Below are positions 10,827-19,943 of a stretch of DNA of 64,000 nt, piece after piece. The notes under the pieces are model-generated. The model had not been told where the DNA came from. It searched no databases and worked only from the letters and a program-made list of their open reading frames with translations. Each line of letters opens with the position of its first letter. Positions within the stretch are counted from its first letter, which is position 1. The DNA comes from Dictyostelium discoideum (taxonomy: Eukaryota). Both the position numbers and the translations under genes were made by a program. The stretch covers positions 4,288,001 to 4,352,000 of the forward strand of contig CM000151.3 of NCBI GenBank assembly GCA_000004695.1, in the 5' to 3' direction.

Positions 10827-12600
10827 ATGAGGCTTTACTATTATAAATTAACAATTTTAATTTTCACAATTATTATGATTACACTTTCAACTTTTTTAAT
10901 AATAGCTTTAAATAATAATAATAATAAAAATAATTATAATAAAAATGATGATAATATTAAAAATATGGTTTCAAAAAAGAGTATAGATTTAATTACTCCA
11001 ATAAATAAATTGGTGATTGTTGAAAAAGATGTAGTAAAAGAAGTAATAAAAGAAGTCTGTAATAATAATTTAATTAATAATAATTTAATAAATAATAATT
11101 TAATTAGTAATAATAATAATAATAATAATAATAATAATAATAATAATAATAATAATAATAATAATAATAATAATAATAATAATAATAATAATAATAATAA
11201 TAATAATAATAATAATAATAATAATAATAATAATAATAATAATAATGATGATGATGATAATAATAATAATGATGATGATAATAATAGTGAAATTAAGAAA
11301 AATAATAATTTGAGAGAAAAAGATAATTTATATGGATTTAAAGATAAACAATCAATGATTAATTATTATCTTACATATCAAAATTATTATGATATTGAAG
11401 ATTTTAAAAATGTACAATATGTAAATAAAAGTAAATATGGTTTATCAAATTACCAAATTCCAGAAGTTACAAAAATTATTAGTGATTTTAAACCTACAAT
11501 AAAGGAAACTGAAATGTCAATTGAAAAATTAAATGAGAATTATAATATTGGAATTGATGGTAAACCAAACATTTATTTAGACATTGATAAAGAAAAACAA
11601 TATAATCAAGATATTTATAAATTATCTTTAAAAATCGTTAAATCAAGATTATGGTCTGATTTTTATTCAAATTATTGGAGAGATAAAAACTTTCAAAAAT
11701 ATTCAATTGATAATGGTTTGACTCCATTTGAAGCACCAAAACTTTCTTTACCATTAAATACATCAACACCACTTTTAACAACTCCATATATATTTATACA
11801 TTTACCAAAAGTTGGTGGAAGTTCAATGATTATCCATTTTCAAAAACATTTTAGAGCAGGAGTACACCAACAATGGGCTTATCCAGGTAAGTAATAAAAA
11901 ATAAAAAAAGAAAAAAATACAAAAATACAAACACCTAAACTTCAATTTAATATTAATTAATCATTTTAAAAAAATTACAAAAGATTCAAAAGATATTATA
12001 AAGGTACAAAATGCCCATAATTTAGTATTGGGTCATTTTGGATATGGACTTCATTATGTTTTAAAAGAAGATTCTCAAAAAACTTATAATTATCTTACAA
12101 TGTTAAGAGATCCAGTTGATAGAGTTATAAGTCATTACTTTTATCATAAATCAACTTCATTCGATGAAGAACATATCCCTGCTCGTGATAATAACCTTGA
12201 ACAGTGGTTAGAAATATCACCTCGAGGTACAAATGAAATGACTAGACATTTATCAGGTATTACTGTAATTGAAGAGTTTTTACCAACTAATGAAACATTT
12301 AATATGGCAATGTACAATTTAAGAAAAATGAAATTCGTTGGAATTACTGAAAGATTTGAAGAAACATTAGCACTCCTTAAATTTTATACAGGTTTTGATA
12401 ATCCTGTTGTTTCTGATAAACAGAATGTTGGCCATTTAAAGCCATATGGTATTACACCTGAAATAATTCAAAAAATTAAAGAAAAAAATTGGATGGATAT
12501 TTTATTATATGAAGAAGCTTTAAAAATGTTTGAAAGACAAATCAATATAGTTGGTAGAGTTAATTTTGAAAATCAATTAAATAAAATATTAAAAAAATAA
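10827..12600 (+). CDS. Type II membrane sulfotransferase (Sulfotransfer_2 / HS-O-sulfotransferase-like), tandem paralog 1. join(10827..11886, 11984..12600).
   Basis: Features are an N-terminal signal-anchor TM (LTILIFTIIMITLSTFLIIAL), a poly-N stem, a 5'-PSB PAPS-binding motif IFIHLPKVGGSSM at the end of exon 1, and a 3'-PB motif LRDPVDRVISHYFY in exon 2, with a conserved C-terminal NWMDILLYEEALKMFERQ. The intron has a GTAAGT donor and an aag| acceptor and is phase-consistent. Confidence 0.75.
11105..11250 (+). repeat. (AAT)n coding microsatellite giving a poly-Asn tract of about 45 residues in the stem of sulfotransferase 1.
   Basis: Perfect aat repeats in frame within exon 1, typical of Dictyostelium coding N-runs. 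Confidence 0.9.
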
Positions 12601-13385
12601 AATCAATTGTATGTAAAAATAAATAAAATAATAATAAAATAATAATTAAGTATAAAATAATAATCAAAATTTTGGTAAATAAAAATTAAAAAAAAAAAAA
12701 AAATTTTAAAATAAATAATTTCAAATCATAAAAATAATCAATTAATAACTATATTTTGTTTCCCAGTCCTTATTTTTCAAGAAAACAAAAAAAATAAAAA
12801 AAAAAGTTTTTGTAAATTTCTTCCAAAGATATTTTTTTTTTATTTTTTTTTTTAGTATTTTCATTATGATAATGAAGAGTTTTGCTACGCAAACATGCAC
12901 GATTCTAAGAATTAAAAAAAAAAAAAACACGAAAAATCTAAAAAAAAAAACAAAAATGTTAAAAAATCTAAAAAAAGAAATTTTGATGGGATGGTTTGTT
13001 TGTTCTTACCAATGGGTAATTTGATTTTTATTTATTTATTTATTTATTTATTTTTTTATTTAATTGAAAAAAAAAAATCAAAAAGAAATTGGTAAATTTT
13101 GGGCAATTCCCAAATTTTTAATCATTCTCTTTTGTTAAACCACATTCAAATTTCAGACCACTTTTTTTTATTTAATTTATTTTTATTTATTTATTTATTT
13201 ATTTTTTTTATTTGTTTATATATCATACTGTTGTTAACATTAATCAATTTGGAATTTATGTTCTCTTTAAATTTTTTTTTTTTTTTTTTTTTTTTTGATA
13301 TAAAATTTGTGAATATATAATTAGTCCCAAGTTAAAAAATTAAAAAAATAAAACCAAATCAATAGAAAACAAAATTTTAAAAGTG

Positions 13386-18109: not shown

Positions 18110-18432
18110 TTAATTATTTAAAAAATTATTTAAAAACTTTTTAAAAAAAAAAAAAAAAAAATAATAATATTTCTTGTGTTCGGTTAATCATATGTCATTT
18201 TAATTTTTTATTTTTTTATTTTTATTTTAATCCAAAATTACTTTTATTTTTAGATTTTTTTTATTCGAGTTTTTTTTTTTTTTTTTTTTTTTTTTTTTCA
18301 GAATAATCGTTTGTTTGCGAACGAAATGTCAAAAAAAAAAATAATTTTAAAAGTAGAAATAATAACAAATTAAATTAATATCTTTTATTTGTTTTATTTT
18401 AAAATAAAAAAAAAAAAAAAAAAAAAAATAGA

Positions 18433-19943
18433 ATGATAAAAATAAAAGATTTAAGGTTTATAATTTTATCAATTATAATATTAAGTGGATTTACAACATT
18501 TTACTATATAAATTTATATGGTACTATTAATGGAATAAAAAGTGATTTATTAAAACCAAATAATAAATTGGAAATTGTTGAAAAAGAAATTAATAAAAAA
18601 GTTGTATTTGAAAATTGTAAAAATGAAACAGATGAATCAAATTTTTATAATTATTATCAATTTAATGATAAAGAATCAATGATTAATTATTTCCTTACCT
18701 ATCAAAATTATTATTATATTGAAGAGTATAAAGATAAACAATTTAGTAATAGTACAAAATATAATTTATCAAAATATAATTATCCAGTGTTAACTAAACT
18801 TTATAGTAATTTCACACCAACTATCAAAGAAATTGATAATGAAATTGATTTAATTAAAAAGAAATATGATAATGGTGAAATTGTGGAACCCAAAATAAAT
18901 TCAATAACTTCTTCAACTACTTATAGATCTATCAGAGCACCAAAAAAAAAAACAAATAAAAAAATTACCTTTGAAAATGATGAAACCTATCATAGTTTAG
19001 AATTAAAAAAATTTAGATCAAGAGTATGGTCAGATTTTTATTTAAATTATTGGAAAGATAAATATTTCTTATTATTCACCTTAGAAAATGGTTTATCATT
19101 TAGATCACCAAGACTTTGTTTACCATTGGATACTTCAAAACCACTTTTAACAACACCTTATTTATTTTTACATATTCCAAAATGTGGTGGTACAACAATG
19201 TATACTCACTTTTCAAAACATTTTAAAGTTGGTACATTACAACAATGGGCTCATCCAAGTATGTATTTAAATATATGAAAAAAAAAAAAAAAAAAAATTA
19301 ATTATTAACTCTTTTTTTTTTTTCAGACCCTGCGGAATATAAAAAAGTTCAAGATTCTAAAAATTTTATTATTGGTCATTTTGAAATGGGAATACATTTA
19401 ATTTTAAATGAAAAAGAACAAAAAACTTATAATTATATGACAATGTTAAGAGATCCAGTTGAAAGAGTTATAAGTAATTATTTCTATCATAAACATAGTC
19501 CAGGTGATCCACAACATATATTAGCTCGTGATAATGTAATTGAAAATTGGATAATTATATCACCACGTGGTAATAATGAAATTACTAGAGTTTTATCAGG
19601 TATAACCATTAAAGAAGAACCAGTACCATCCAATGATACCTTTAATATGGCATTATATCATTTACGTTCAATGAAATTCGTTGGTATTACAGAGAAATAT
19701 TCAGAGTCATTAGCATTATTAAAGTTTTACACTGGTTTAGAAAATCCAAATGTTGCTGATAAATTAAAAAATTCAAAATTTAGACCATATGGTATAACAC
19801 CTGCAATCATTGAAAAAATTAAAAAAAGAAATTGGATGGATATTTTATTATATGAAGAAGCTTTAAAAATGTTTGAAAGACAAATTAATATTGTTGGTAG
19901 AGATAATTTTGAAAAACAATTAACAAAAAATTATAGACAATAG
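18433..19943 (+). CDS. Type II membrane sulfotransferase, tandem paralog 4. join(18433..19258, 19327..19943).
   Basis: Features are TM anchor FIILSIIILSGFTTFYYI, YLFLHIPKCGGTTMY | DPAEYKKVQDSKNFIIGHFEMGIHLILNEKEQKTYNYMTMLRDPVERVISNYFYHK, and a C-terminal NWMDILLYEEALKMFERQ. Donor is cca a|gtatgt and acceptor is ttttcag|. Confidence 0.75.

Follow-up and report, generated by a model that had tools for sequence, protein, structure and literature searches.

Which enzymes are encoded by a run of four similar genes on chromosome 2 of Dictyostelium discoideum, and what do these enzymes modify? The run occupies positions 10827-19943 of a 64,000-nucleotide stretch of the AX4 genome (GenBank assembly GCA_000004695.1, contig CM000151.3, positions 4,288,001 to 4,352,000 of the forward strand), hereafter the window, in whose positions all coordinates are given. 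The whole window is extremely A+T-rich. Four pairs of open reading frames (ORFs) on the + strand, each joined into a single frame by GT..AG splicing, give four neighbouring, complete and intact two-exon genes, which we call g1 to g4; their products have 558, 674, 589 and 480 amino acids, respectively. A preliminary description of this DNA had taken them for four same-strand sulfotransferase paralogs in tandem. Our gene models agree, and the same order and intron are found in three other species. We consider it highly probable, from the sequence and fold comparisons below, that g1 to g4 are functional, membrane-anchored O-sulfotransferases dependent on 3'-phosphoadenosine 5'-phosphosulfate (PAPS), of the Sulfotransfer_2 (HS6ST/HS2ST-like) kind.

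The spliced g4 product is identical to the AX4 protein XP_644088 (DDB_G0274515), and that of g3 agrees with XP_644087 (DDB_G0274677) across the splice junction. Both genes, as well as an unlinked paralogue on chromosome 1 (DDB_G0270564), carry the database label 'hypothetical protein', and no mention of the three was found in papers searched by identifier.

All four copies possess the motifs expected around the PAPS pocket. The 5'-phosphosulfate-binding motif (5'-PSB) reads PKVGGSS in g1 (11805-11825), PKVGGTS in g2 (14706-14726), AKSGGSS in g3 (17179-17199) and PKCGGTT in g4 (19177-19197). The catalytic Lys is thus kept while its neighbours vary (PKVGG, AKSGG, PKCGG), just as first described. 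The 3'-phosphate-binding motif (3'-PB), RDPV(D/E)RVIS, follows in exon 2 of every copy, at 12106-12132 (RDPVDRVIS in g1), 15030-15056 (g2), 17609-17635 (g3) and 19449-19475 (g4). It is accompanied in 4/4 copies by GHFxxGxH (GHFGYGLH at 12031-12054 in g1), and NWMDILLYEEALKMFERQ is also present (12487-12540 in g1). Across 119 homologues, residues H247, K250, G253, H293, R317, R322, S325 and D447 (g4 numbering) never vary, and conservation of H299 reaches at least 90%; the invariant catalytic residues K250, H293, R317, R322 and S325 are found in each member of the array.

By analogy with the enzyme family, we propose the following mechanism. The Lys of (P/A)KxGG(S/T)(S/T) would bind the 5'-phosphosulfate of PAPS, and the Arg and Ser of RDPVxRVIS its 3'-phosphate. 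A conserved His of GHFxxGxH would deprotonate the sugar hydroxyl, which would then attack the sulfur. Either His of this motif could be the catalytic base; the conserved His residues align with H-G-H of HS2ST and G-L-H of HS6ST.

Profile searches recover the sulfotransferase fold. With catalytic domains scanned alone, all four proteins pass the gathering score of PF03567 (Sulfotransfer_2; 22 bits), at 28.6 (g1), 33.8 (g2), 26.3 (g3) and 35.2 bits (g4), a check that the preliminary description had proposed. In full-length scans only g4 passes (30.8 bits), since the low-complexity tracts of the proteins depress the scores. The profile of the 119-sequence family, compared with solved structures, matches the heparan sulfate 6-O-sulfotransferase HS6ST3 (PDB 5t03) over the whole catalytic domain with an E-value of 2.6e-26, and the 2-O-sulfotransferase HS2ST with 3.5e-12. 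In these alignments the K, GH/GxH and RDPxxRxxS of the family fall on the corresponding HS6ST/HS2ST motifs, the 3'-PB of the array lying on LRDPVSRYLS of HS6ST.

The AlphaFold model of g4 is confident (predicted local distance difference test, pLDDT, 87; predicted template modelling score, pTM, 0.83) and has the sulfotransferase alpha/beta (P-loop-like) fold. Its best matches among solved structures in Foldseek are sulfotransferases, again headed by HS6ST3. HS2ST (PDB 3f5f / 4ndz) is more distant, its 5'-PSB being PKTAST where the array has PKxGG, and in HS6ST the residue before the catalytic Lys is Gln, not Pro. By sequence and fold the array proteins appear HS6ST-like, but we do not class them as HS6ST proper.

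Upstream of the catalytic domain, each protein starts with 7-9 residues including K/R, followed by a strongly hydrophobic stretch of ~19 residues (amino acids 10-28 in g1, 8-26 in g2, 9-27 in g3 and 10-28 in g4). Kyte-Doolittle averages over 19 residues peak at 1.8-2.9 at residues ~8-28, and windows above 1.6 begin only at residues 1-14. The signal anchor noted in the preliminary description is therefore visible in all four hydropathy profiles. The layout fits that of a type II protein, with a short cytosolic tail, a single anchor and a predicted lumenal catalytic domain. From the family we infer a Golgi location, use of PAPS and a carbohydrate acceptor: the short basic tail and signal anchor would place the enzyme in Golgi membranes, while a variable, microsatellite-encoded spacer and a helical N-terminal extension specific to dictyostelids would hold and flank the catalytic domain.

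The segment that separates the anchor from the catalytic domain had been described as a low-complexity stem, and this is half of the picture. The microsatellite tracts are where they were said to be: poly-N in g1, encoded by (AAT)n at 11060-11309, and in g2, with (AAT)n tracts at 13680-13892 and 14163-14304; poly-Q and QQYK in g3, from (CAA)n and a 21-nucleotide repeat at 16687-16800; and no microsatellite found in the g4 coding sequence. The region also holds blocks conserved across dictyostelid homologues, namely the (L/I)xx(Y/F) core in the FLTYQNYY block, an R(A/S)R.W.DFY..YW helix and P.L.LPL…PLL..PY.F.H. These blocks are helices predicted with pLDDT above 90 in the full-length g4 model; modelled alone, the N-terminal region is poorly predicted (pLDDT 59). 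We take it to be an extension packed against the catalytic domain and not an independent domain.

The expansions are confined to two fixed positions between conserved blocks. In g4, which has none, the matching segments (residues 30-43 and 159-165) are low-confidence loops in the model. The same two sites grow longer elsewhere: g1 of D. citrinum has more than 150 consecutive Asn and g3 of D. cf. discoideum ~50 Gln, and orthologue lengths range over 547-642 amino acids for g1 and 606-751 for g2.

Each gene is interrupted once, by a GT..AG intron in phase 1 that splits the codon after '..QQWxxP'. In g1, exon 1 (10827..11886) and exon 2 (11984..12600, ending at the stop) flank a 97-nt GTAAGT..AG intron (11887..11983). 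The corresponding features are 13386..14787, 14788..14907 (120 nt, GTAAGT..AG) and 14908..15530 in g2; 16114..17260, 17261..17486 (226 nt, GTATGT..AG) and 17487..18109 in g3; and 18433..19258, 19259..19326 (68 nt, GTATGT..AG) and 19327..19943 in g4. All lie on the + strand; exon 1 encodes the cytosolic tail, anchor, N-terminal extension and 5'-PSB, and exon 2 the catalytic C-terminal half. As an aside, the g3 intron consists mostly of an (AAT)66 microsatellite (17287-17485), which brings it to 226 nt against 68-120 nt in the other copies.

The intron lies exactly 26 codons past the Lys of the 5'-PSB in 4/4 copies. It had been correctly placed at one and the same codon in all four genes, but not right after the 5'-PSB motif: it falls 19 codons beyond the motif end. 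All 12 annotated orthologues from D. cf. discoideum, D. citrinum and D. firmibasis could be rebuilt only with a single phase-1 intron at this codon. A homologue from Heterostelium album is interrupted at the same codon and phase (…CAT CCA A|gtaagt…ag|GT…), and one from Cavenderia fasciculata has its intron at the same codon as well. The splice junctions predicted for g1 to g4 are thus supported by the deposited AX4 proteins of g3 and g4, the 12 orthologues and the Heterostelium and Cavenderia homologues. DDB_G0270564, a Polysphondylium violaceum homologue and P0302, a member of a second dictyostelid clade, are single uninterrupted ORFs. Since the codon is also interrupted in Heterostelium and Cavenderia, the intron is much older than the array; being ancestral to the gene family across Dictyostelia, it does not date the array.

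The age of the array is seen better in synteny and trees. The order oxysterol-binding-protein gene, g1, g2, g3, g4 is identical in D. cf. discoideum, D. citrinum and D. firmibasis. We built neighbour-joining trees with 200 bootstraps, handling the parts encoded by exon 1 and exon 2 separately. In the exon 1 tree, g2, g3, g4 and the unlinked paralogue each form an orthogroup in 197-200 of the 200 replicates, and g1 does so in 121; the array of four genes is therefore older than the split between these Dictyostelium species. In both trees the array and DDB_G0270564 make up one clade (200/200), the single P. violaceum gene standing outside. DDB_G0270564 (Q55DP5) shares the architecture of the array, including the N-terminal extension, and is ~49% identical to g4, but it is intronless, has no low-complexity tracts and lies outside the array.

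The 5'-PSB variant is fixed within each orthogroup in 4/4 species (PKVGGSS, PKVGGT(S/T), AKSGGSS and PKCGGTT). Purifying selection acts on all four orthogroups: the ratio of nonsynonymous to synonymous substitution rates (dN/dS) between orthologues lies at 0.13-0.30 in exon 2 and at 0.17-0.60 over the final 85 codons of exon 1.

Exon 2 has a different history in g1 and g2. A run of 287 nt is identical between the two (12028..12314 in g1 and 14952..15238 in g2, both +), despite diverged introns and flanks; by our own arithmetic, such a run is not expected by chance given ~89% identity over the rest of the exon. With exon 2 the tree no longer recovers g1 and g2 as orthogroups (1/200 and 0/200), and the two D. 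firmibasis genes pair with each other in 199/200 replicates. Synonymous divergence (dS) in exon 2 between g1 and g2 of one species is 0.08-0.27, lower than the 0.59-0.66 between D. discoideum and D. firmibasis orthologues, although the g1/g2 duplication is older than that speciation. Other species have identical g1-g2 runs of 95-150 nt at differing positions, which makes the conversion recurrent. Exon 2 of g1 and g2, that is the C-terminal catalytic half, is homogenised by gene conversion.

This bears on the hint of substrate diversification in the preliminary description. The support for it is only partial: it is favoured by the orthogroup-fixed 5'-PSB variants and by purifying selection, and loses ground where g1 and g2 exchange their catalytic half. 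Conversion weakens the idea that these two genes diverge in the exon 2 part of the enzyme; most of what distinguishes them is in exon 1.

What, then, is the acceptor? Apart from enzymes of glycosaminoglycan synthesis, hardly any glycan sulfotransferase of a non-vertebrate has been characterised (PMC6994554). N-glycans of D. discoideum carry mannose-6-sulfate, with up to several sulfates per glycan, and sulfate positions vary between species (PMC11795075). Given such N-glycans, and a 6-O-sulfotransferase as the nearest solved structure, N-glycan mannose suggests itself as the acceptor; our best guess by analogy would be its 6-O hydroxyls. What would then set the four isoenzymes apart is the residue they target, the class of glycoprotein or the stage of development.

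The only Dictyostelium sulfotransferase that has been characterised, and the only one with genetic support (PMC3534706), is Kil1 (DDB_G0267630, Q55GK8), described as a type II Golgi enzyme needed for Klebsiella killing. A relationship of the array to this gene, raised in the preliminary description, is a hypothesis. Its gene identifier differs from those of the identified array genes DDB_G0274515 and DDB_G0274677. Homology searches that return protein names yielded no protein named kil1, an uninformative absence, as the same searches missed AX4 g1, g2 and several orthologues. As a lead only, the second dictyostelid clade, to which P0302 belongs, is a plausible home for Kil1.

In its narrow form, the mannose reading would have g1 to g4 working beside Kil1 or after it as 6-O-sulfotransferases of N-glycan mannose, each with its own mannose or developmental stage. 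It draws on the 6-O activity of the closest solved relative, on the mannose-6-sulfate and multiply sulfated glycans documented in Dictyostelium, and on the age and constraint of the four orthogroups. Several observations weigh against it. The antibody used on kil1 knockout cells detected no mannose-6-sulfate epitope (PMC3534706); loss of this one gene abolishes the detectable epitope in growing cells, and the array genes therefore do not visibly supply it there. HS6ST, represented by zebrafish HS6ST3, is the closest solved structure, yet it shares only 18-21% identity with the array, so that acceptor specificity is not transferable; at ~20% identity, position specificity is not predictable either. 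A helical N-terminal extension of their own and low-complexity spacers further set the array proteins apart from HS6ST, and the acceptor may well differ. Finally, g2 gives a weak match of 30.4 bits to PF06990, the galactose-3-O-sulfotransferase family (gathering score 27), which leaves other acceptors possible. We regard the narrow reading as tentative and somewhat doubtful.

The kil1 knockout result and the weak PF06990 matches make other acceptors, or developmental expression, equally possible. The acceptor might be an O-glycan, a glycolipid or glycosylphosphatidylinositol (GPI) anchor, a spore-coat or slime-sheath polysaccharide, or a small secreted metabolite. The PF06990 matches, weak but recurrent, point to a family that includes glycolipid as well as glycan enzymes; the nearest prokaryotic homologue carries a fused glycosyltransferase, a hint at modification of polysaccharides; and, judging from the kil1 knockout phenotype, there is little visible room for a role on N-glycans in growing cells. 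No particular alternative acceptor is positively favoured, however, and structure and profile comparisons alike give their best matches to enzymes whose targets are sugar hydroxyls of glycan chains. An acceptor other than an N-glycan is accordingly a possibility that we would entertain without leaning towards it.

The mannose reading can be carried further. The array would then comprise position- or stage-specific mannose sulfotransferases that produce multiply sulfated N-glycans, with the dictyostelid-specific helical N-terminal extension, taken to fold only in the company of the catalytic domain, as an acceptor-recognition module, and lineage-specific tandem expansions would give rise to the species differences in sulfation. 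We put this forward as speculation and think it rather unlikely as a whole. If true, these differences would stem from this family in the D. discoideum group and from a sister clade in D. purpureum.

Whatever the acceptor, the array is a conserved tandem family of uncharacterised sulfotransferases, fairly ordinary members of a known enzyme kind and not a new kind of system. Together with DDB_G0270564 it provides a list of five constrained candidate enzymes for the poorly known sulfation of protist glycans, and the array can be removed as one block of 9 kb from the genome of a tractable model organism. It is also a compact example of orthogroup-specific active-site variants, ongoing conversion of one exon and runaway microsatellite growth at fixed loops.

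Could one or more copies be decaying or catalytically dead duplicates? The suspicion falls mostly on g3, which has AKSGG instead of PKxGG and thus no Pro before the catalytic Lys, and whose full-length protein has no Pfam match; the C-terminal tail of g4 is also shortened in AX4. But AKSGGSS is conserved in 4/4 species examined, HS6ST itself has Q in place of P, and g3 is constrained (dN/dS 0.20-0.30), with a catalytic domain that passes PF03567. Reading frames are open and catalytic residues present in all copies, and the tail change in g4 comes after the conserved domain. We find decay of any copy very unlikely, and continue to regard all four as probable active sulfotransferases.

The family extends well beyond the array. 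An exhaustive search returned 4952 relatives (E ≤ 0.001), among them proteins with N-terminal extensions and hydrophobic anchors (P0159-P0166) at 38-45% identity and E-values down to 1e-48. A second clade of dictyostelid PF03567 proteins, whose catalytic domains share 37-39% identity with those of the array, includes P0302 of D. cf. discoideum (490 amino acids, intronless), several D. purpureum genes, and genes from P. violaceum and Acytostelium. Bacterial 'sulfotransferase family 2' proteins (~288 amino acids) share 27-35% identity with the array over the whole catalytic domain and retain the invariant K, H, R, S and D, but they have neither signal anchor nor N-terminal extension and match the C-terminal half only; some are fused to glycosyltransferases. 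Horizontal transfer of the family from bacteria into dictyostelids, suggested by the best 120 matches of word-indexed searches, in which every protein from outside Dictyostelia was short (~288 amino acids) and those with a named source were bacterial, and by the bacterial gene context of the best non-dictyostelid match (P0021), was set aside as most improbable in view of the closer relatives with extensions and anchors typical of eukaryotic Golgi enzymes, the second dictyostelid clade and the ancient intron common across Dictyostelia.

P0021 itself, the best prokaryotic homologue (667 amino acids; L007 8001-10004), is a fusion of a family-1 glycosyltransferase and a sulfotransferase domain, and its gene neighbours include genes for a sigma-54 activator and an extracytoplasmic function (ECF) sigma factor. 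In the sister clade, three close D. purpureum genes (P0184, P0301 and P0198) lie on one contig of 52,427 bp, which looks like an independent tandem expansion. In D. firmibasis the sister-clade gene RB653_002088 (P0305) is ten locus tags away from the g4 orthologue. The D. firmibasis locus tags led us to look for a fifth sulfotransferase gene in the 64-kb window; it was not found, and RB653_002088 has no counterpart anywhere in the window.

The conserved left border of the array is marked by the last exon of the oxysterol-binding-protein gene (9647..10246, +), the ORF upstream of the array matching PF01237. On the right, a minus-strand gene with a Pex19-matching product follows the array in 2/3 syntenic species. 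The ORF directly downstream in the window (20449-21312, - strand) gave no Pfam match; it occupies the same position as the Pex19-matching gene in two syntenic loci. Alignment of the 300 nt upstream of each start codon of g1 to g4 revealed nothing in common except A/T richness.

Two 3' ends differ from other models. In the region 18053-18373, the deposited DDB_G0274677 model, of 599 amino acids, swaps the conserved C-terminus VGRDNFKNQLNKIQIENK* (stop 18109) for a tail from ~18305-18373. The unspliced g3 end is kept in a newer annotation, in all paralogues and in all orthologues, and the extra 3' intron of the deposited model therefore looks like a mis-annotation. AX4 g4 stops at 19943 (…QLTKNYRQ*), where other D. 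discoideum strains and other species continue in another frame (…QLKKIIDNSPKILTNNNNN…). It seems that a difference of 1 nt in an A-run shortens a non-conserved tail lying after the conserved domain. In the AX4 window (region 19915-20030) the alternative tail frame is also open, and an (AAT)20 repeat follows.

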